Positions 202 to 16,487 of a stretch of 19,033 nt of DNA are shown piece by piece. The DNA is taken from IMG/VR virus record IMGVR_UViG_2802429219_000005; one strand, 5' to 3'. The position numbers were made by a program, and so were the translations under genes. Source of the DNA: a virus. Lineage: Duplodnaviria > Heunggongvirae > Uroviricota > Caudoviricetes. The notes under the pieces were generated by a model. The model was not told where the DNA came from. It saw only the letters and a program-made list of their open reading frames with translations, and did no database searches. The stretch's first letter is position 1, and the number at the start of each line of letters is the position of its first letter.

Positions 202-439
202 CGGGCATTACAGCAGCCCTTCAGCGAGGGGCTGCGATAATGCAACACAGGAATAAAAACCGGCCAGGGAGAATCCGTTAAAGGTCTGCCGGTGGCGAAA
301 AAGTGCCAGGTGCTCAACCTAAGCTGATTCTCTGTTGAACACAATAATTTTATTTACATCTATGTGAATGCGTAGGGCTTCTGTGATGCACGTCATGTTA
401 ATGATGTATGGATATGCGAATCATTCCCATTTTCACGGG

Positions 440-3302: not shown

Positions 3303-4870
3303 ACGGGGAACTGGTGGATCTGCACGGGCAGCCATTGCGGCAGAGTATGGGATATTCCGGAGGGGGTACCGGATTTGGCGGGCAGCTTGCGGAATGGTTG
3401 CCTGCACCGGAAAGTGCCGATGTGGCGCTCTTACCTTCCATTCAGCTGGGTAACGCCCGTGCGGATGATCTGGTCCGTAACAACGGTATTGCCGCAAATG
3501 CAGTGGAAATTCATAAAGACCATATCGTCGGGCACATGTTTCGCCTGAGCTACCGGCCCAACTGGCGCTGGCTGGGGATGTCGGAAGCTGATTCGCATGC
3601 CTTTATTGAAGATGTGGAGGCGGCGTGGATGGAATATTGCGATCCTGTGTTTGGTTCGATGGATGTGGAGGGGCGTCGCTCGTTTACCGAATTTATTCGT
3701 GAAGGGGTGGGCGTTCATACGTTTAACGGTGAAATTTTTGTCCAGCCCGTATGGGATACGGAATCCACGTCATTATTCCGGACGAAATTCAAGACCATCA
3801 GCCCGAAACGTGTCAGTACGCCCGTTTATGGCATCGGCGATCGTTTTATGCGTGCCGGGGTGGAAATCAACCGGTACGGAAAAGCACTGGCCTACCATGT
3901 TCAGGAAGATGACTGGCCCGGTTACGGTGTCAGCAACTGGACGCGGATTGCGGCGACGCTGCCCTCCGGGCGACCGGGAATGATCCATGTGTTTCAGCCG
4001 CAGGAGGACGGGCAGACGCGCGGGGCCAACCAGTTTTATTCTGTCATGGAGCGCCTCAAGATGCTCGACACACTGCAGGCCACGCAACTGCAGTCGGCGG
4101 TGGTGCGGGCGATGTATGCCGCGACGATTGAATCCACACTGGATTCGGAAAAAGCATTTGAATATATCGCCGGGGTGGGAGACGGCGGAAAAAATCCCCT
4201 GAACACCATCATGAAAGGCTATGCGCGTTATTACGCCACCAATACGGTAAAACTGGGCGGGGTCCGTATTCCGCATCTTTACCCGGGGGATTCACTGAAT
4301 CTGCAGACAGCGCAGAATGCAGATAATGGTTTCTCTGAACTGGAAAAGGCGCTGTTACGTTACATTGCTGCCGGGCTGGGGGTGTCCTATGAACAGCTTT
4401 CCCGTGATTATTCACAGGTCAGTTATTCCAGTGCCAGGGCATCCGCCAATGAGTCGTGGCGGTATTTTATGGGCAAACGAAAATTTGTGGCCAGTCGACT
4501 GGCATCACAGATGTTTGCCTGCTGGCTGGAGGAAGCTCTTATTCGCGGTGTGATTCGCCCGCCGAAATCCCGTTTTTCATTCTGGGAGGCCCGTTCCGGA
4601 TGGTGTCGTGCCGAGTGGATTGGTGCCGGTCGCATGGCGATTGATGGCCTTAAGGAAGTGCAGGAAGCGGTGATGCGTATTGAAGGTGGTTTAAGCACGT
4701 ACGAGAAAGAGCTGGCCCTGATGGGCGATGACTATCAGGAGATTTTCCGCCAGCAACTGCGTGAAAGCCAGGAGCGACAGGCAGCGGGTCTTCCCCGCCC
4801 CATCTGGATAAAGGACACGTTTCAGCAGCAGATCCGACAGACAACGGGAGAAAAAGGTGATGCGTCGTAA
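3299..4870 (+). CDS. B: portal protein, lambda gpB-like
   Basis: About 524 aa. GGGTGFGGQL, LLPSIQLGNARADDLVRNNGIAANAVEIHKDHIVG match recalled lambda B. Start placed at in-frame GTG 3299, which overlaps the W stop as GTGA and follows AGGAG at 3286-3290; the ORF track start at ATG 3275 is the alternative. Confidence 0.9.
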   Translation: MNGELVDLHGQPLRQSMGYSGGGTGFGGQLAEWLPAPESADVALLPSIQLGNARADDLVRNNGIAANAVEIHKDHIVGHMFRLSYRPNWRWLGMSEADSHAFIEDVEAAWMEYCDPVFGSMDVEGRRSFTEFIREGVGVHTFNGEIFVQPVWDTESTSLFRTKFKTISPKRVSTPVYGIGDRFMRAGVEINRYGKALAYHVQEDDWPGYGVSNWTRIAATLPSGRPGMIHVFQPQEDGQTRGANQFYSVMERLKMLDTLQATQLQSAVVRAMYAATIESTLDSEKAFEYIAGVGDGGKNPLNTIMKGYARYYATNTVKLGGVRIPHLYPGDSLNLQTAQNADNGFSELEKALLRYIAAGLGVSYEQLSRDYSQVSYSSARASANESWRYFMGKRKFVASRLASQMFACWLEEALIRGVIRPPKSRFSFWEARSGWCRAEWIGAGRMAIDGLKEVQEAVMRIEGGLSTYEKELALMGDDYQEIFRQQLRESQERQAAGLPRPIWIKDTFQQQIRQTTGEKGDAS

Positions 4871-6338
4871 TTTATCGCATATTGCCGCCATGGCATTTAA
4901 TGAGCCGCTTTTACTGGAACCCGCCTATGCGCGGGTTTTCTTTTGCGCGCTGGGTAAAGAGATAGGGGCCGGCAGTCTTGCCGTTCCTCAGCAGGCTGTT
5001 CAGCTTGATGCTGATGGTATGCAACTGGCTGTGACTGACTATATGGCGGGCGGTCAGCGTCCGGCGAAGAGTTACCAGGTGAAGAATGGCATTGCCATTC
5101 TTCCGGTGAGCGGCACGCTGGTGCATAAACTGGGTACCCTGCGGCCTTACTCCGGCATGACAGGCTATGACGGTCTGACTGCTCGTCTTCAGATGGCGGT
5201 GAATGATCCGGATGTGCGCGGCATTTTGCTGGATATCGACAGCCCGGGCGGTCAGGCTGCCGGGGCGTTTGACTGTGCTGACATGATTTACCGTCTGCGG
5301 GAACAGAAGCCCGTGTGGGCGCTGTGTAATGACATGGCCTGTTCAGCCGCCATGTTGGTGGCGGCAGCCTGTACGCGTCGGCTGGTCACACAGACGGCAA
5401 AAATTGGTTCGATTGGCGTGATGATGGCGCACACCAGTTACGAGAAACAACTGGCACAGGAAGGGGTGGACATCACGCTGATTTACTCCGGGCAGCACAA
5501 GGTTGACGGCAACAGTATTCAGGCATTGCCGGCAGGTGTGCGTGCAGATTTTCAGCGCCGTATTGATGAGACCCGCCGGATGTTTGTCGACAAGGTGGCG
5601 CTTTATACGGGGCTGAGTTCAGAGGCGGTGATGAATACCGAGGCTGCCGTTTATGACGGTCAGGCAGGCATTGATGCAGGCCTGGCTGATCAACTGATTA
5701 ATGCTGCAGATGCCGTTGAAGTGATGGTTTCTGCACTGAATGACTCTGTTACGAAGGAGAATGCAATGACTGTTAAAAATCTCACCGTTGCTGAAGCGGT
5801 GGCCCAGGAAAATCAGCGCGTGATGGGGATCCTGAATTGTCAGGAGGCGAAAGGGCGCGAGCAACTGGCGCAAATGCTGGCAGGTCAGCTAGGAATGACG
5901 GTTGAGCAGGCGAAAGCGTTTCTGGCGGCAGCCCCTGCTGCCAGTGCTGCAGGCACAGGCGATCAGATTATGGCGTTGCCGGAAGCAAAAGGGCGTGAAC
6001 AACTCGCGCAGGCGCTGGCTGAACAGCCGGGAATGACCGTTGACCAGGCAAAAACGTTACTGGCGGCGGCACCGGTTGCTGGTTCTGCAAGTGTCGGCGA
6101 TCAGATTATGGCACTGCCCGAGGCGAAAGGGCGCGAGCAACTTGCACAGGCGCTGGCAGAACAACCGGGAATGACGGTGGCGCAGGCGAAAACGTTGCTG
6201 GCAGCCGCACCGGCGGCATCGCAACCGTCACAGGAAACACTTTTTGATCGCTTTATGGCACAGCATGCCACCAGTTCGGTTTCCGGTGGCGGAACTGCCG
6301 GGCGCGGGGAAGAAGACCTGCTGATGAGTATGCCGTAA
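4857..6338 (+). CDS. C: head maturation protease / minor capsid protein, lambda gpC-like, with C-terminal scaffold region containing a triplicated repeat
   Basis: 493 aa. N-terminus RNLSHIAAMAFNEPLLLEPAYARVFFCAL matches recalled lambda C (RNLPHIASMAFNEPLMLEPAYARVFFCAL). About 54 aa longer than lambda C (439 aa as recalled), roughly one extra repeat unit. Start at 4857 (GTG) or 4860 (ATG). Confidence 0.9.
   Translation: MMRRNLSHIAAMAFNEPLLLEPAYARVFFCALGKEIGAGSLAVPQQAVQLDADGMQLAVTDYMAGGQRPAKSYQVKNGIAILPVSGTLVHKLGTLRPYSGMTGYDGLTARLQMAVNDPDVRGILLDIDSPGGQAAGAFDCADMIYRLREQKPVWALCNDMACSAAMLVAAACTRRLVTQTAKIGSIGVMMAHTSYEKQLAQEGVDITLIYSGQHKVDGNSIQALPAGVRADFQRRIDETRRMFVDKVALYTGLSSEAVMNTEAAVYDGQAGIDAGLADQLINAADAVEVMVSALNDSVTKENAMTVKNLTVAEAVAQENQRVMGILNCQEAKGREQLAQMLAGQLGMTVEQAKAFLAAAPAASAAGTGDQIMALPEAKGREQLAQALAEQPGMTVDQAKTLLAAAPVAGSASVGDQIMALPEAKGREQLAQALAEQPGMTVAQAKTLLAAAPAASQPSQETLFDRFMAQHATSSVSGGGTAGRGEEDLLMSMP
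5766..6338 (+). CDS. nu3: putative Nu3-like scaffolding protein from an internal in-frame start within C
   Basis: In-frame ATG at 5766 preceded by AAGGAG (5754-5759) at 6 nt spacing. Product (190 aa) is Ala/Gln/Glu-rich and contains the three tandem repeats. Lambda Nu3 is likewise nested in frame in the 3' part of C. Inferred from signals and precedent only. Confidence 0.45.
   Translation: MTVKNLTVAEAVAQENQRVMGILNCQEAKGREQLAQMLAGQLGMTVEQAKAFLAAAPAASAAGTGDQIMALPEAKGREQLAQALAEQPGMTVDQAKTLLAAAPVAGSASVGDQIMALPEAKGREQLAQALAEQPGMTVAQAKTLLAAAPAASQPSQETLFDRFMAQHATSSVSGGGTAGRGEEDLLMSMP
5832..6245 (+). repeat. three tandem, in-frame 138-nt (46-aa) repeats inside C/Nu3 (copies start about 5832, 5970, 6108)
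   Basis: Protein repeats (M)ALPEAKGREQLAQALAEQPGMTV(D/A)QAKTLLAAAP...GDQI. The DNA copies differ at many synonymous positions (gggcgcgagcaactggcg / gggcgtgaacaactcgcg / gggcgcgagcaacttgca), so this is not a recent slippage event. Confidence 0.85.
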
Positions 6339-6782: not shown

Positions 6783-7811
6783 ATGGGGTTATTTACCACG
6801 CGTCAGTTACTCGGGTACACCGAGCAGAAAGTGAAATTTCGTGCGCTGTTTCTTGAGCTGTTCTTTCGTCGCACGATCACTTTCCATACTCAGGAAGTCA
6901 TGCTGGATAAAATTACCGGCAAAACACCGGTTGCGGCGTATGTGTCTCCGGTGGTGTCAGGCAAAGTGCTGCGCAGCCGTGGTGGTGAAACCCGCGTGTT
7001 ACGTCCCGGTTATGTAAAACCAAAACACCGCTTTGATTATCAGCAGGCTGTAGAACGTCTTCCGGGGGAAGATCCGGCCCGCCTTAATGACCCGGCTTAC
7101 CGCCGTCTGCGTATTCTGACGGACAATCTGAAACAGGAAGAGCAGGCGATTGTGCAGGTGGAAGAAATGCAGGCAGTCAGTGCTGTTCTGCAGGGTAAAT
7201 ACACCATGAGCGGCGAGCAGTTTGAGACGGTGGAAGTGGATTTTGGGCGTTCTGCCGCCAATAACATTACGCAGGCTGGCGGACGCGAATGGTCGAAGCA
7301 GAATGCTGATACCTTCGATCCGACGCATGATCTGGATGCGTACTGCGATTTCGCTTCCGGCACCATCAATATCGCGATTATGGACGGCACGGTCTGGCGT
7401 ATGCTGAACGGTTTTAAACTGTTCCGTGAAAAACTGGATACCCGCCGTGGCTCCAAATCTGAGCTGGAAACGGCACTGAAAGACCTGGGCTCCGTGGTTT
7501 CCTTTAAAGGCCATTACGGCGATCTGGCAATTGTGGTGGCGAAGACAACGTATGTTGACGAAAACGGGGATGAACAGCGTTATCTGCCGGAAGGTACACT
7601 GATTCTGGGGAACACTCAGGCGGAAGGCGTCCGTTGTTATGGTGCCATTCAGGATAATCAGGCACTGAGTGAAGGGATCACCTCTGCGATTCGTTATCCG
7701 AAACACTGGGAGGAAGTGGGGGATCCTGGTTGCGAATATACCATGACGCAGTCTGCGCCGTTGATGGTGCTGCCGGATCCGGATGCGTTTGTGGTGGTTC
7801 AGGTGAAATAA
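6783..7811 (+). CDS. E: major capsid protein, lambda gpE-like
   Basis: 342 aa. Extensive identity to recalled lambda E: YVSPVVSGKVLRSRGG, PGYVKPKH, AIVQVEEMQAVSAVLQGKYTMSGEQFE, EKLDTRRGSKSELETALKDLG, GDLAIVV, LGNTQAEG, MTQSAPLMVLPDPDAFVVVQ. Confidence 0.95.
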   Translation: MGLFTTRQLLGYTEQKVKFRALFLELFFRRTITFHTQEVMLDKITGKTPVAAYVSPVVSGKVLRSRGGETRVLRPGYVKPKHRFDYQQAVERLPGEDPARLNDPAYRRLRILTDNLKQEEQAIVQVEEMQAVSAVLQGKYTMSGEQFETVEVDFGRSAANNITQAGGREWSKQNADTFDPTHDLDAYCDFASGTINIAIMDGTVWRMLNGFKLFREKLDTRRGSKSELETALKDLGSVVSFKGHYGDLAIVVAKTTYVDENGDEQRYLPEGTLILGNTQAEGVRCYGAIQDNQALSEGITSAIRYPKHWEEVGDPGCEYTMTQSAPLMVLPDPDAFVVVQVK

Positions 7812-7816
7812 GACGG

Positions 7817-7842
7817 GGCGGGATATTCCCGCCTTTTTCTTT
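7817..7842 (+). terminator. rho-independent terminator-like hairpin downstream of the major capsid gene
   Basis: GGCGGGA (7817-7823), loop TAT, TCCCGCC (7827-7833), followed by TTTTTCTTT (7834-7842). Confidence 0.6.
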
Positions 7843-7861
7843 AGCGCACGGGAGAGATGTG

Positions 7862-8239
7862 ATGACAAAAGAGCAGATGACGGAACGCCTTCAGGAACTG
7901 GCAGTGATTCTGGGGCGTGAAGCAGATATTTCAGGTTCAAAAGCCGATCTTGAGCAGCGCCTGGCGGAATGGGAAGAAGAAGCAGAATGTATTCATCAGA
8001 CTGATGAGATTTCTGATGAAATTTCCGAAGTACAGAAAACAGAGAAAGTTACGCAGAATGCAACTGATCTGGTTCGGGTAAGAATGAAAGTGACGGCTCA
8101 CCTTTGTGCTTTTGATGAGCACGGCACCCGCCGGGTGGAATTTGCTCTGGCAGGTCAAATTGTCAGTCTGGAGTCTCATCGCCTTGCCAGCGTCATTGCT
8201 GCCGGAGTGGCTGAGGTTTGCCATGCTGTCGATGTCTGA
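7862..8239 (+). CDS. FI: DNA packaging / head assembly protein, lambda FI-like
   Basis: 125 aa from ATG 7862 (GGAGAG at 7851-7856). N-terminus MTKEQMTERLQELAVILGREADISGSKADLEQRLAEWEEE resembles recalled lambda FI (MTKDELIARLRSLGEQLNRDVSLTGTKEELALRVAELKEE). Position after E is as in lambda. The ORF track starts upstream at 7730, inside E. Confidence 0.8.
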   Translation: MTKEQMTERLQELAVILGREADISGSKADLEQRLAEWEEEAECIHQTDEISDEISEVQKTEKVTQNATDLVRVRMKVTAHLCAFDEHGTRRVEFALAGQIVSLESHRLASVIAAGVAEVCHAVDV

Positions 8240-8597
8240 TAATGATTTTGACCGGGCTATGGCAAAAGCTGATCACGAGATACTCAGGGCGATGGGGCGT
8301 GAGTTTCATATTCAGGCCGGTGGGCGTTTTGTCCATATCTGGGGCGTACTGGATGAGACTGAGTCTGATGTTCTCCTGAAAAAAGGAGGAGGGATGATTC
8401 ATGATGTCGCTCCACGGTTGTTTGTTTGCACCCGTGATATCGAAGGTGTATCCAGGAAAAGTCGGGTTGAGTGTGATGGTGTTGTTTACTGGGTGGTAAG
8501 TATTGGCCCGGACGACAATGGTTTCTGTTATCTGACGCTGGCGCGTGGGGAACCGGGTACGTCACTGCCGGTTATTGACGGGTGGAGTAAAAAATAA
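8223..8597 (+). CDS. FII: head-tail connector protein, lambda FII-like
   Basis: 124 aa from ATG 8223 (GAGG at 8213-8216). SDNDFDRAMAKADHEILRAMG...VHIWGVLDE...PRLFVCTRD...VVYWVVSIGPDDNGFCYLTLARGEP parallels recalled lambda FII (ADFDNLFDAAIARADETIRGYMG...PSLFVRTDE...FWVDRVSPDDGGSCHLWLGRG). Confidence 0.8.
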   Translation: MLSMSDNDFDRAMAKADHEILRAMGREFHIQAGGRFVHIWGVLDETESDVLLKKGGGMIHDVAPRLFVCTRDIEGVSRKSRVECDGVVYWVVSIGPDDNGFCYLTLARGEPGTSLPVIDGWSKK

Positions 8598-8618
8598 ACT
8601 TCATAAGGAGATATCGCA

Positions 8619-9302
8619 ATGGCGCGGGCATCACGCATCCGGCAAAATCTGTTGTTTGATATCGACGTCGAAGAATTGCGGGATATTGCGGCGCTGGCTG
8701 GCGCAACGCAGCACCAGTTTCGTCTGGCCTATTCCCGCGCACTGAAGCGAACGGCATCAAAAATGCGCATGAAGGCGCTTGCGGAACTGAAAACCGGCCT
8801 GGCTCCCCGCAAAATGGACATGCTGCGCAGGCGTCTTTTTTTCACTCGCATTACCCGGGGTAATGCAATGGATGAAGCCCGTTTCTGGTTTGGTCTTAAT
8901 GCGATCAAGATAAAGGATCTACGCGGACGCATTCGTGGACGACGTGTTCGTCATCATGATCTCCGTGACCCGGTAACCGGGCGGTTTATCAAAGAGAATC
9001 GTGTCAGACGGCGTCGCCGCAAAGCCAGCGATCCGGTTTTTGAACCCAACGGTTCGTTTTTATCTCCCACCGCATATGAAAACGGGCTGGTGATACGTAG
9101 CCGCAAAGAGAACCGACGAACAATCATCATCAAAAATCCGGAAACCGGGCGCGTCCGGGAGGCTGAAGCCGGTATTTATGCCCGTACAATGGATTATGTT
9201 GAAGATGTGGCTTTTGCAGAATGTCTGGAAATTTTTATGAAAGAGTTCGAATCGGACATCCGGCGACGTGCGAAGTACGGCATTACCGTGACCCCCCGAT
9301 AA
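8619..9302 (+). CDS. arginine-rich structural protein, putative tail completion protein (lambda gpZ-like by position and composition)
   Basis: 227 aa, SD AAGGAG at 8605-8610. Very basic with an RRRRRK run (KENRVRRRRRKASDP) reminiscent of the RRRRRKK stretch in lambda Z as recalled. Sits directly after FII, where Z lies in lambda. Function is positional/compositional inference only. Confidence 0.5.
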   Translation: MARASRIRQNLLFDIDVEELRDIAALAGATQHQFRLAYSRALKRTASKMRMKALAELKTGLAPRKMDMLRRRLFFTRITRGNAMDEARFWFGLNAIKIKDLRGRIRGRRVRHHDLRDPVTGRFIKENRVRRRRRKASDPVFEPNGSFLSPTAYENGLVIRSRKENRRTIIIKNPETGRVREAEAGIYARTMDYVEDVAFAECLEIFMKEFESDIRRRAKYGITVTPR

Positions 9303-9318
9303 AAAACGTGAGGACACA

Positions 9319-9882
9319 ATGGCTGAACCCTTATGCATGGCATCCTGGCACGCTGCTGTGCTGGGTGCCCTGAAAGAACTTAAATGGATCAGGGATGCGG
9401 ATACCTACCCTGAACGGGTTACGCAACTGGTCACTCCGGCGGTGTTTCTGGCGGTCGATGGCTGGGATGCGAAAAACAATGCAGACGGACAGATGACGGT
9501 GGTGTTGTCTGCTGCGCTGTGGGTGCTGGTTGATCGTGCCGGTGAGCCGGAGAACGAAAAAAAGGAAGTGGCTGCAAAGCCGGATATTTTTATCCGTTCG
9601 GCAGCCGCCGATCTGACGCACTGGCTCGACGGACAGACGTTCGGGCTGGCAAATGTGGAGCCTGCCATTTTTATATCAGCGGACGCAGATGAAACCGATC
9701 CGCGCCTGGATGATTATCTGGTCTGGCAGATTTCATTTAACCAGACGGTGACGTTTGGTATGGATCTCTTTGCCACGGATAACCTGCCGCTACAGCGGGC
9801 CTGGCTGGGTGTTGCACCGGAGATCGGGCGACAGCATGTGGATGATTACCGGCTGATTTTTGAGAGAAAGCCACGTGAATGA
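9319..9882 (+). CDS. putative tail terminator protein (lambda gpU-like)
   Basis: 187 aa, SD GAGGA at 9308-9312. N-terminal motifs HAAVLGAL and PAVFLAVDG, 28 residues apart, parallel AAVLDAL and PAVAVYLTG (29 apart) in recalled lambda U. Stop overlaps the start of the spike gene (GTGAATGA). Moderate confidence in the family assignment. Confidence 0.55.
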   Translation: MAEPLCMASWHAAVLGALKELKWIRDADTYPERVTQLVTPAVFLAVDGWDAKNNADGQMTVVLSAALWVLVDRAGEPENEKKEVAAKPDIFIRSAAADLTHWLDGQTFGLANVEPAIFISADADETDPRLDDYLVWQISFNQTVTFGMDLFATDNLPLQRAWLGVAPEIGRQHVDDYRLIFERKPRE

Positions 9883-10495
9883 GGTTCTGGGGGATTTACA
9901 GCGCCGCCTGGCAAATATGGTCCGGCGCGGGGTGATCCACTCGGTGCGGCTGGACGGTGGTTTTCCGGAATGCCGCGTGGATCTGGGGGATATTGTGACC
10001 ACCTGGCTGCCATTATGTCAGGGGTTTGCCGGAAAAAACAGGGCAGATTTTGAGCCGTTTGCTGTGGGTGATGCGGTTACGGTGCTGTCAGAGGCCGGGG
10101 AGCTGAATAACGGTCGTGTTTTTCCCGGCTGGAATACCGGTGAGGCACCGGCTCCGCAGGGCAGCGACAGTGAGCACATCACCCGTTACGGAGATGGTAC
10201 TGAAATTTGCTATAACCGGGAGACGCACTCACTGACCATTATTCTGGCGGAAGGGGGCACCTATGCCATTACCGGGAATGGTGTACTGGACGGAAACGTC
10301 ATGATTTCAGAAAACCTGATCGTGAACGGACGCACGATGGTTGAAGGTGAAGTGGTGGTGAAAAGTGATTTTTATGCAAAAGGAGAGGTGACGGATAAAT
10401 CCGGCAGTATGAGCCGGATCCGGGAAACGTTTAATGGACACGACCATCCCGGAGACAGTGGGGGAACCACGAAAGTACCGAATCAGAAAATGTGA
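9875..10495 (+). CDS. baseplate central spike / assembly protein, P2 gpV-like (Mu gp45-like)
   Basis: About 206 aa from GTG 9875. N-terminus (M)NEVLGDLQRRLANMVRRGVIHSV and C-terminal GHDHPGDSGGTT resemble recalled P2 gpV (LARALRNMIRTGII...HxHPGDSGGTT tip motif). The ORF track uses an upstream TTG at 9860. Confidence 0.85.
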   Translation: MNEVLGDLQRRLANMVRRGVIHSVRLDGGFPECRVDLGDIVTTWLPLCQGFAGKNRADFEPFAVGDAVTVLSEAGELNNGRVFPGWNTGEAPAPQGSDSEHITRYGDGTEICYNRETHSLTIILAEGGTYAITGNGVLDGNVMISENLIVNGRTMVEGEVVVKSDFYAKGEVTDKSGSMSRIRETFNGHDHPGDSGGTTKVPNQKM

Positions 10496-10516
10496 CCTGC
10501 TGCGGCAGGTTTTTTT
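10495..10516 (+). terminator. rho-independent terminator-like hairpin between spike gene and sheath gene
   Basis: ACCTGC (10495-10500), loop TGCG, GCAGGT (10505-10510), followed by a 7-T run ending at 10516. The stem begins at the last base of the V stop codon. Confidence 0.6.
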
Positions 10517-10533
10517 ATGTCCGGAGAATGCAA

Positions 10534-12003
10534 ATGGGGCAATTACATGGTGTGGAAACCATCGAGCTGACAGCAGGCACGGTGGCGGTAACCACAATAG
10601 AGACAGCCATTATTGGGGTGGTGGGAACCGCGCCGCAGGCTGCCGGGGCTGTGGCAGCAACACTGACAGCGGGAACGCCGTTGCTGGGTAACGAGCTGAC
10701 CTTTACGGCAAAAGCGGCGGGGCGGAGCGGAAATACCATTACCGTTATTGCTGAACAGGCTTTACAGGCAGCAAAAGAAAAAAGTGCGGGTGCGGTCCCC
10801 ACGTCAGCAAAATGGGAAAACGGAAGCCTGTTGATTTGGCTTGGATGCAGTGAAGAGGGGGCCGGTAATGCCACCGTCAGCGATGTTGTGACGGCAGTGA
10901 ATGGCGTGGCTGGGGTCGGGGTGAGTGCCACCGGCAGCGGTGACGGTATTGTGTCGCCGTTTTCCGGCACACTGAGTGGCGGTGAAGATGAACCGTTTCC
11001 GCTGAACACGCCAGTGGCGATGGCGGGAACAACGGCGCTTTCACGTCTGGGGCTCACCGGAACACTGAAGCAGGCGCTGACGGAGATTAACGACCAGCGT
11101 AACGCGCTGTCGGTGATCGTCCGGGTGGAAGAAAAAACGAAGCCGGAAGAGCAGCGTGCTGCCATTCTTGCGGGGATCAGCATGCTGTCATCGGCAAAAT
11201 CCGTCACCACGTATCAGCCACGTATTGTGATTGCACCAGGATTCAGTGAAGACGATGCGGTAGGTAAGGCACTGGAAACTGTGGCCGGAAAACTGCGGGC
11301 AGTGGCGTACGTGGATTGTGCTGCGGGCGCGACACTGCAGGAAGTGGTGCAGCGTCGTCAGTCTTACGGTGCCCGGACTGAACTACTGCGCCCGCGTGTG
11401 CAGGTCAGTAATGCAGAGGGGCAACTGGTGTATCGCCCGTATTCGGCGTTTGCTGCCGGACTGCGTGCCCGTATTGACTATGAAAAAGGGTGGTGGTGGA
11501 GCAAATCAAACCAGGAGGTTTACAACATCCTCGGTGTTGAGCAGGTGGATGAATTTATCCTCGGTGAGCGTAACTGCGATGCCAACCTGCTTAATATGCA
11601 GAATGTCTCCACCCTGATCCGCCGCGCCGGATTTAAACACTGGGGAAACCGGCTGTGCTCGTCCCATCCTCAGTGGCATTTCGAGTCCGTCCGCCGTACT
11701 GCGGATGTGATTGAAGACAGTATTCAGGAAGCGATGCTGGCATATGTTGACCGCCCGCTTGATCGTCAGAATGCGGACGACATCATTGGCACCATTAATG
11801 CGTATATGCGCCGTCTGGTGGCAGAAGGTGCCATCTTCGGGGGGCGGGCATGGCTGGATCCGGAACTGAATACCGCCGAAACGCTGGCAGCCGGTGAACT
11901 GTACATCAACTATGACTTCGGTCCCAAATCGCCGACTGAACTTATCAGCATGCGGGTGAGCGTCAACAACGAATACGGCATTAAGGAGATGAAGGCAACA
12001 TGA
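10534..12003 (+). CDS. contractile tail sheath protein (P2 FI / Mu L-like) with an extra N-proximal Ala/Gly/Thr-rich region
   Basis: About 489 aa from ATG 10534 (GGAG at 10523-10526). LHGVETIEL near the N-terminus and NVSTLIRRAGFKHWGNR, AGELYINYDFGP in the C-terminal half are typical of P2-type sheath proteins. Roughly 100 aa longer than P2 FI as recalled. Confidence 0.88.
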   Translation: MGQLHGVETIELTAGTVAVTTIETAIIGVVGTAPQAAGAVAATLTAGTPLLGNELTFTAKAAGRSGNTITVIAEQALQAAKEKSAGAVPTSAKWENGSLLIWLGCSEEGAGNATVSDVVTAVNGVAGVGVSATGSGDGIVSPFSGTLSGGEDEPFPLNTPVAMAGTTALSRLGLTGTLKQALTEINDQRNALSVIVRVEEKTKPEEQRAAILAGISMLSSAKSVTTYQPRIVIAPGFSEDDAVGKALETVAGKLRAVAYVDCAAGATLQEVVQRRQSYGARTELLRPRVQVSNAEGQLVYRPYSAFAAGLRARIDYEKGWWWSKSNQEVYNILGVEQVDEFILGERNCDANLLNMQNVSTLIRRAGFKHWGNRLCSSHPQWHFESVRRTADVIEDSIQEAMLAYVDRPLDRQNADDIIGTINAYMRRLVAEGAIFGGRAWLDPELNTAETLAAGELYINYDFGPKSPTELISMRVSVNNEYGIKEMKAT

Positions 12004-12558: not shown

Positions 12559-12858
12559 ATGAATATTCCGGGTGAAACCCGCACCATCACACTGTACACA
12601 CCTGTCACTCTGGGGGGCGGGGCTGTGCTGGAACACATCACCATGCGCGAACCGCTGGTGCGCGATCGCATTGCCTTCACCAAAGACCGGGGAACAGAGG
12701 AGGAAAAAGAGGCGCGTATGATTGCGCAGCTTTGTAATCTGAGTGAGCAGGATATCTGGCTGCTGACCGCAGCGGATTATGCCCAGCTGACGGATGCCTT
12801 TAATGTTTTTATGCTGCCACCCGGGAAGCGACCGAAACCGAAATCTTCAGAGGGTTAA
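12559..12858 (+). CDS. tail assembly chaperone (P2 gpE / lambda gpG analogue)
   Basis: 99 aa, SD AAGGAG upstream of ATG 12559. Small acidic protein between the tube and tape measure genes, the conserved position of frameshifting tail chaperones. Confidence 0.75.
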   Translation: MNIPGETRTITLYTPVTLGGGAVLEHITMREPLVRDRIAFTKDRGTEEEKEARMIAQLCNLSEQDIWLLTAADYAQLTDAFNVFMLPPGKRPKPKSSEG

Positions 12859-12986
12859 GGTTTCTCGGGCGGCGGCTGCATTTTCCTCTTTCCGATTATC
12901 TGTCCATGCCGTTCAGTGTGTTTACGGCATTTTTACTGGATGAAGTGGAGGCGGTAAAACGTGGGAAGCGTAAGTCAGAATCTTAA
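12559..12986 (+). CDS. putative -1 frameshift extended chaperone (P2 E+E' / lambda GT analogue); slip predicted at the T-run 12806-12810
   Basis: The -1 frame opens at 12804 (after TAA 12801-12803) and runs to TAA 12984-12986, overlapping the tape measure start. It reads CFYAATREATETEIFRGLRFLGRRLHFPLSDYLSMPFSVFTAFLLDEVEAVKRGKRKSES. Predicted fusion is about 142 aa, the size of P2 E+E' as recalled. No canonical X_XXY_YYZ heptamer, so only single-tRNA slippage on UUU is possible. Confidence 0.45.
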
Positions 12987-15086: not shown

Positions 15087-15276
15087 CGGGGATGTGCTTG
15101 ATGCGATTTGCGCCACGCATTACGGCACGGAAAATCTGTCTGCCGTGCTCACTCTTGTGCTGGAGGCCAATCAGGGGTTGGCAGAGAAGGGCGCGGTTTA
15201 TCCGGCGGGGATCCGGATTGTGTTGCCTGAAATCACACAACAGGTGTCTGAGTCGCCATACAGCCTGTGGGATTAA
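15061..15276 (+). CDS. tail protein X, P2 gpX-like (LysM-like)
   Basis: 71 aa. GDVLDAICATHYG...VLEANQGLAEKGAVYPAGIRIVLPEI resembles recalled P2 X (GDTLDAICVRYYG...VLAANPGLAELGAV). U-X-D order matches R-type pyocin clusters. Confidence 0.75.
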   Translation: MPTIWITRDGDVLDAICATHYGTENLSAVLTLVLEANQGLAEKGAVYPAGIRIVLPEITQQVSESPYSLWD

Positions 15277-15284
15277 GGGAGGAG

Positions 15285-16487
15285 ATGATGACGTCATTAT
15301 TCGAACAGCTGCAGGCAATAAATGCTGCGTATCAGGAGTCCCTGAACAGTGAGGAAAAACAGGAAACCATTGCCACGACCGTCCGGGAATTCTGCCCGGC
15401 GTATCGGGTGACAGCTGAAGGGCGGGATATCACGCGGGTGCTGGCCCGTTATCTTGTGGATATCACTCTGACGGATTACGGCGGAGCCACCGCCAAATCT
15501 GATGAACTGAAAATCACGCTGCTTTCTGAAACACTGCCCCTGCCGACAAAGGGGGCGCGTCTGCGGGTGGCGATGGGGTTTAACGGTAATCTGGTGGACA
15601 AGGGCTGGTTTGTGGTGTGCGGCGTGAGCAGCAGCGGCCCGCCGCGGCGGATCGAGATTTATGCTACCGCTGCCCCCATGAATGCGGAAAAGCAGTCCGG
15701 TGATGTGCTGAATCAGAAAACACGCAGCTGGGATAATCTCACGCTGGGTGATCTGGTGAAAACTGTTGCCACGGAAAACGGACTGAAGGCCCGGGTGGCG
15801 GAGAAGCTGGCGGGGATCCGCATTACCCATGTGGATCAGGTGGCAGAATCGGATGCCAGCCTGTTGTCCCGCCTTGCCCGGACGTATAACGCCGTCAGTA
15901 AACCTGCCGGAGGTTACTGGTTGTTTCTGGAGCAGGGTGCCGGAACCACCGTATCGGGCGCGCCCCTGAAGACCGTGACGCTGACACCTTCCGTGGTGTC
16001 ATCCTGGAATTATCAGGAAGGTGAACGGGGGAGCTCTGGCGGCGGTGGAGATAAAAAAAAGAAGAAAGAAAAAATCACGGTTCGTTATTTTGACAAGGCT
16101 GACGGGCGAACCAAAACGGCAACCGTGGAGCATGACGGCTCGTCTGTAACCAGTCCGTACACGCAACCGGAAAAGGAAACGGCTGAACAACAGGCAAAAT
16201 CGAAAAAAACACAGGCGCAACGCAACAGCCGGAAAATGACGCTGACAGGGCCGTGCCGTCCTTCATATGTTGCCATGACCGCCGAATCCGGCGTGGTGAC
16301 ATCCGGATTTGGTAAGCGGGAAGATCGCCGCTGGCTCGTGGAATCACTGTTTTTTTCCCTCTCATCTTCAGGCTTTACCTTCACGTTTAATCTGGTGGCT
16401 GAAATCAAAAACGCCAGTAAATCAGACAAAAAATCCGGTGATAAAACAGGGCCGGATTATTTTGGTATCGGATCGGGAAAAAAATAA
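15285..16487 (+). CDS. baseplate hub / late control protein, P2 gpD-like (Mu gp44-like), with an internal Gly/Lys-rich low-complexity insert
   Basis: About 400 aa from ATG 15285 (AAGGGAGG upstream; second ATG at 15288). Size and position after U/X match P2 gpD-type proteins. Contains SSGGGGDKKKKKEK encoded by an A8 tract (16053-16060). Confidence 0.8.
   Translation: MMTSLFEQLQAINAAYQESLNSEEKQETIATTVREFCPAYRVTAEGRDITRVLARYLVDITLTDYGGATAKSDELKITLLSETLPLPTKGARLRVAMGFNGNLVDKGWFVVCGVSSSGPPRRIEIYATAAPMNAEKQSGDVLNQKTRSWDNLTLGDLVKTVATENGLKARVAEKLAGIRITHVDQVAESDASLLSRLARTYNAVSKPAGGYWLFLEQGAGTTVSGAPLKTVTLTPSVVSSWNYQEGERGSSGGGGDKKKKKEKITVRYFDKADGRTKTATVEHDGSSVTSPYTQPEKETAEQQAKSKKTQAQRNSRKMTLTGPCRPSYVAMTAESGVVTSGFGKREDRRWLVESLFFSLSSSGFTFTFNLVAEIKNASKSDKKSGDKTGPDYFGIGSGKK

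Follow-up and report, generated by a model that had tools for sequence, protein, structure and literature searches.

What is the strongly arginine-rich protein encoded at the head–tail junction of this virus, and does its composition point to completion of the tail or to association with DNA? The stretch analyzed here, below referred to as the window, comprises 19,033 nt of a tailed virus (Caudoviricetes, IMG/VR record IMGVR_UViG_2802429219_000005), and the gene in question occupies positions 8619–9302 of the plus strand. The original prediction, made from position and composition, had suggested a lambda Z-like tail completion factor or, equally, a DNA-associated protein.

The reading frame at 8619–9302 (+) is a real ORF encoding 227 aa plus the stop codon, with a good ribosome-binding site, AAGGAG, read from the sequence 8 nt upstream of the ATG (8605–8610, +). 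Full-length homologues, with identity as low as 31%, are found in Enterobacterales, and the identical protein is present in at least 45 index blocks of a public assembly collection. Compared to an E. coli relative approximately 92% identical over the ORF, 52 of the 684 nt differ, yielding 32 synonymous and 15 non-synonymous codon differences and dN/dS of 0.13; judging by these substitutions, the gene is under purifying selection.

The composition is as originally described. The product contains 40 arginines (17.6%) and 5.7% lysine, with pI 11.24 and net charge +25. Of all the products encoded by the 21 genes in the window, it alone is strongly basic, pI of the other 20 ranging from 4.4 to 9.3. 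The run RVRRRRRK is found at residues 128–135 (nt 9000–9023), and the accompanying RGR/RRR clusters, at residues 102–111 (RGRIRGRRVR), 70–72 and 215–217 (both RRR). Given the composition, the clustering of arginine and lysine is modestly non-random (shuffling, p = 0.023 for the longest run and p = 0.025 for the maximum number of R/K per 40 aa). The estimate of about 35 aa in excess of lambda Z is exact, lambda gpZ having 192 aa. The second most basic product of the window is the gpD-like protein (15267–16487, +; pI 9.3), which has a glycine- and lysine-rich insertion, SSGGGGDKKKKKEK, and a lysine-rich C-terminal tail.

Sequence profiles link this protein to lambda gpZ. Its sole match in PHROG is family 27, "tail completion or Neck1 protein" (E = 4.7e-24, residues 5–226 aligned to positions 3–198 of the 199-position profile), which is also matched by lambda gpZ (E = 3.2e-69). 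In Pfam, the 227-aa query has no match at E ≤ 1 and hence stays below the gathering cut-off of the Minor_tail_Z model (PF06763, 23.9 bits); the search in NCBIfam yielded no match either. Nevertheless, PF06763 is matched by four of 19 close family members (best E = 5.4e-5). The family-profile search over 1.84 billion representatives identified 234 relatives, and, among ten remote relatives tested against PF06763, eight match at E ≤ 0.01 and five score above the gathering cut-off. Comparison by hhalign of the family alignment with an alignment of lambda Z and intermediates results in 99.95% probability (E = 3.8e-38, 183 aligned columns). As the lone lambda gpZ sequence produces no signal either in BLASTP or in hhalign with the family, the connection to gpZ is made through profiles and intermediates; and as the relatives match PF06763 and the intermediates yield so high a probability, the query is a divergent member missed by the Pfam model rather than a non-member.

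Searches of PDB sequences by phmmer and hmmsearch, with both the query and the family, produced chance matches alone (RNase M5 at E = 0.017, the rest near E = 1), and no PDB entry for the lambda gpZ structure was found. Two large WD40-repeat proteins from the profile search, P0154 and P0184, with 12 and 7 stretches matched to residues 116–166 of the query, respectively, were rejected as homologues, since these matches sum up the chance likeness of the RDxxTG...FxPxG pattern to the WD40 turn WD..TG...F.PDG. Based on the ORF, the PHROG 27 match, hhalign and dN/dS, we annotate 8619–9302, stop codon included, as the gene for a divergent tail completion protein (TCP/Ne1) of the lambda-gpZ type. The profile comparison with lambda gpZ thus comes out in favor of the original assignment, which is supported by synteny and the predicted fold as well.

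The late operon of a prophage makes up the window: a lambda-type head/neck module is followed by a contractile tail module of the P2/R-pyocin type, and the prophage, which combines both, is enterobacterial. The head/neck genes are Nu1, gpA, gpW, the lambda-type portal (B), the S49 protease/scaffold (C), gpD, gpE, FI and FII; the tail genes are those of the gpV spike, sheath, tube, chaperone, tape measure, gpU, X, D, W, J, I and fibre. The location of the arginine-rich gene at the head–tail junction, as originally placed, is confirmed by its neighbors. Upstream are FI (7862–8239) and, adjacent to the gene, the FII-type head closure protein (Hc1) at 8232–8597 (+; Pfam Phage_attach, E = 5.8e-11; PHROG 82, E = 1.4e-25). 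Downstream is the tail terminator, or collar (9319–9882, +), which resembles the collar of pyocin R2 and is listed as "hypothetical protein" in public genomes, and beyond it the gpV spike, sheath and tube genes follow in this order.

Several other features of the operon were observed. The S49 protease/scaffold gene (4857–6338) contains a 138-bp tandem repeat (2.7 copies, 78% match) at 5843–6214 (+), which encodes units of the form MALPEAKGREQLAQ.LAEQPGMTV.QAKTLLAAAP near the C-terminus; the length of this protein differs among related prophages (492 vs. 538 aa), suggesting variation in the number of repeats. The mechanically assigned starts of two plus-strand ORFs, TTG at 9860 (9860–10495, 211 aa) and GTG at 10492 (10492–12003, 503 aa), are probably too far upstream; in near-identical prophages the gpV-like protein is called at 206 aa and the sheath at 489 aa. 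The tail chaperone gene, located within 12559–12986 (+), encodes 99 aa (Phage_TAC_7 in relatives) and carries GTTTTTA at 12805–12811, with the –1 frame open from approximately 12804 to a stop at approximately 12984–12986. In P2, E+E' is a programmed –1 frameshift product, and the arrangement seen here would fit a product of this kind. No RNA family was identified by the Rfam scan of the window.

The order FII – TCP – tail terminator (FII/Hc1 to U/Tc1) is shared by phages Chris1 and Mica and by six further contigs. In every context examined, with either a lambda-E or an HK97 capsid, an FII-type (Phage_attach) gene is located directly upstream of the Z-type TCP gene, and in most of them the latter is followed by a gene encoding approximately 175–190 aa and then by a P2-type gpV spike gene. 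The neck cassette, at 7862–10495 in the window, appears to be exchanged as one unit in mosaic fashion. The region itself is rare: at least 80% of positions 7800–10500 is carried by just five of 5426 complete E. coli genomes, at 94–95% identity, and three more matches among those listed cover 71% of it. No nucleotide-level match was detected in the phage collection.

Comparison with known systems shows how far the similarity to lambda extends. The query and lambda gpZ share PHROG 27, the position of the gene, immediately flanked by FII upstream and by the tail terminator downstream, in a lambda-type head/neck module, strong basicity with a poly-arginine stretch in the central loop, and the terminal helices with a central beta region seen in TCP models (PMC11661146, PMC11784142). 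On the other hand, the two proteins have no pairwise similarity, the query being below the Pfam threshold and longer; the central loop is 59 aa in the query and 42 aa in lambda gpZ, and an RDxxTGR[FY] motif of the query loop, described below, is missing from the matching lambda Z region in the alignments. The arginine runs of the two proteins are at different points of the loop in these alignments, and therefore perhaps are not homologous insertions. Finally, lambda gpZ completes the tail of a siphovirus, and the query would complete a contractile P2-like tail.

The TCPs of P2 (gpS) and Mu (gpG) are assigned to the same TCP/Ne1 superfamily in the literature (PMC4362835, PMC11099176), whose members range from 56 to 231 aa (PMC4362835), and serve contractile tails of the P2/Mu type, as in this prophage. 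However, they are 150–156 aa long, come from a different genomic context and match PHROG 26, whereas the query matches PHROG 27 alone; hhalign of the query family with gpS and gpG reveals no similarity (probabilities below 1%). A specific affinity to gpS or gpG was accordingly rejected, and, as these proteins belong to PHROG 26 and lack similarity to the query, the prophage has a lambda-type TCP together with a P2-type tail. Yet another TCP, gp51 of 80alpha/SaPI1 (PDB 9MU2, chain P), comes from a headful-packaging siphophage of Gram-positive bacteria and belongs to a different sequence family (HK97 gp10, PF04883); it has 115 aa, without the inserted beta domain and the long basic loop, and its structural match to the query is weak.

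The AF2 model of the 227-aa protein (pLDDT 77.8, pTM 0.62) consists of an N-terminal helical region (residues 17–61; 8667–8801, +; pLDDT 83–90), a beta region (residues 74–185) and a long C-terminal helix (residues 187–220; 9177–9278, +). The N-terminal region includes the segment GATxxQxxxAYxRALxRT, whose alignment columns are invariant in the family. Predicted TCP structures have a beta-sheet between long terminal helices (PMC11784142), and the modeled fold of the query follows this layout; in gpZ, an extra beta domain has been noted at the apex (PMC11661146). In a Foldseek search against viral models the top matches are two 188-aa phage proteins (E = 1.7e-4, target TM-score 0.68), followed by proteins of the HK97-gp10 family.

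The arginine richness highlighted in the original prediction does not distinguish this protein from gpZ: strong basicity is the norm in the gpZ family rather than a peculiarity of this member. Lambda gpZ is more basic than the query, with pI 12.0, net charge +37 and the run RRRRRKK, and pI of every full-length relative listed is between 9.5 and 12, so the query fits in the family range.

We defined the central loop as the stretch running from the conserved GLN motif up to the conserved strand that follows it in the MAFFT alignment of 158 representatives. Its length varies from 11 to 61 aa with the median of 35, and its net charge has the median of +6 and is positive in most representatives. 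In the query, the loop, or beta excursion, delineated by MAFFT and hhalign, comprises residues 96–154 (8904–9080, +) with net charge +11 and pLDDT 62–74, compared to +13 in lambda gpZ. Most of the additional length of the query relative to short family members is located in this loop, where an insertion is seen in hhalign. Within it we observe the motif RDPVTGRF (residues 116–123; 8964–8987, +), identified from alignment columns of the long-loop subfamily; in the alignment of the query's subfamily, R116, D117 and G121 show no variation, and T120 and R122 almost none. The RDxxTGR[FY] pattern is found in 68 out of 158 full-length representatives, with the median protein length of 220 aa compared to 188 aa in the rest.

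The RVRRRRRK run (9000–9023, +) behaves differently. It is restricted to close E. coli and Salmonella relatives, where its length varies (RRRRRK, RRRRK, RRRR), while in other family members the linker at this position is neutral or acidic; it is also the segment of the lowest confidence in the AF2 model, with pLDDT below 50 at residues 128–132. The run was therefore rejected as a conserved functional core, and the most plausible reading is that of a flexible basic linker, specific to this lineage and part of the loop, rather than a function of its own.

The long loop as a whole could be regarded as an adaptation to the contractile tail or to the lambda-head/P2-tail hybrid. The five long-loop members with examined context (the window, Chris1 and three contigs) indeed all come from lambda-head/P2-tail elements. 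However, the short-loop relative P0087 (190 aa) occupies the same lambda-head/P2-tail cassette, and the short-loop proteins of Mica and of the P0108 contig are encoded upstream of a gpV spike gene; given these short-loop relatives, this explanation was rejected. The conserved inserted module of the long-loop subfamily (RDxxTGR[FY], the basic linker and FxPxG) could still be a distinct functional element beyond a tolerated loop expansion, e.g., one that clamps the cohesive DNA end or latches onto the FII/terminator channel or the N-termini of the tape measure protein, though we consider this rather unlikely. If true, the module would provide a tractable handle on the positioning of the genome end by gpZ-type proteins.

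The 80alpha/SaPI1 neck structure and the genetics of lambda and SPP1 suggest, by analogy, how such a protein may act. In 80alpha/SaPI1, the only solved case, the TCP is present as a monomer inside the lumen of the neck, where it caps the DNA end and also binds the tape measure protein; its positive face is turned towards the DNA, and aromatic residues are stacked on the last base pair (PMC11661146). In SPP1, gp16.1 is required for head–tail joining and DNA entry, while lambda particles lacking gpZ look normal but are non-infectious, which has been attributed to misplacement of the DNA end (PMC11099176); the association of lambda gpZ with placement of the DNA end is a long-standing one (PMC11099176, PMC11661146). 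The best overall explanation, with a probability of roughly 0.78, is that the gpZ-type TCP of this prophage resides in the neck lumen and joins the DNA end to the tape measure protein. One or few copies would be added to the finished tail after the terminator and housed in the lumen, where the basic face and the loop would touch the packaged DNA end and the acidic inner wall, and the opposite face would bind the trimeric tape measure protein at its N-termini. In this way the genome end would be plugged and positioned for ejection, and the TCP would leave together with the tape measure protein at infection. Both functions offered by the original prediction, tail completion and DNA association, agree with this scheme, but not as alternatives: as the 80alpha TCP in the neck lumen completes the tail and caps the DNA end, they constitute one hypothesis within this scheme.

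The strongest competing explanation, to which we assign a low but appreciable likelihood, is that the gpZ homologue is a structural or joining part, that is, a symmetric ring, a component of the neck exterior or a protein located elsewhere on the tail, and not a lumenal plug. It is favored by the contractile tail of this prophage, and our literature search found no report of a TCP located in a contractile-tailed phage, or myophage. However, the adjoining terminator resembles the collar of pyocin R2, which caps both tube and sheath and would render a separate ring unnecessary. Membership in the lambda Z family rather than in that of P2 gpS and Mu gpG also speaks against a structural part, as does the fact that heads and tails do join in lambda Z– mutants (PMC11099176). 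The location of TCPs may vary, T5 p143 having been fitted at the tail tip, but the membership of p143 in the family is doubted by the T5 authors themselves (PMC11784142).

Further, the protein could act in assembly only, chaperoning the terminator or the tape measure protein, and be absent from the finished virion. In line with this, no cryo-EM map of lambda has ever shown gpZ (PMC12617516, PMC11661146), and the loop of the AF2 model is flexible and partly of low confidence. Yet SPP1 gp16.1 has been found in tails by mass spectrometry and western blotting (PMC11099176), and in 80alpha the TCP has been resolved within virions (PMC11661146, PDB 9MU2), making this explanation quite improbable. 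Least probable of all is an arginine-rich protein unrelated to tail completion, which would instead condense DNA like a histone or protamine, reside inside the head, or be packaged with the genome as an ejection protein: the extreme basicity (pI 11.2), arginine content and poly-arginine run would suit it, but the homology to the gpZ profile is full-length, the place between head closure and tail terminator is kept in every context examined, the run is not conserved, with an acidic linker in some relatives, and lambda gpZ, a tail protein, is equally basic.

Taken as a gpZ-type TCP, the protein is a divergent member, hitherto without annotation, of a known family, in which its composition is ordinary, and the locus adds no unusual feature that would change the picture of gpZ-type proteins, whose role is partly understood. 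The gain is in annotation: two genes of the cassette, both "hypothetical protein" in complete E. coli genomes and missed by Pfam and NCBIfam, can now be named, one as a gpZ-type tail completion protein, and the other, as a tail terminator (collar). For the family, gpZ-type proteins in general are extremely basic, with the charge centered on a central loop that varies in length, and this fits the emerging view of TCPs as plugs of the DNA end. For the phages, the lambda-type TCP travels together with the lambda-type FII head-closure gene into phages whose contractile tails are of the P2 type.
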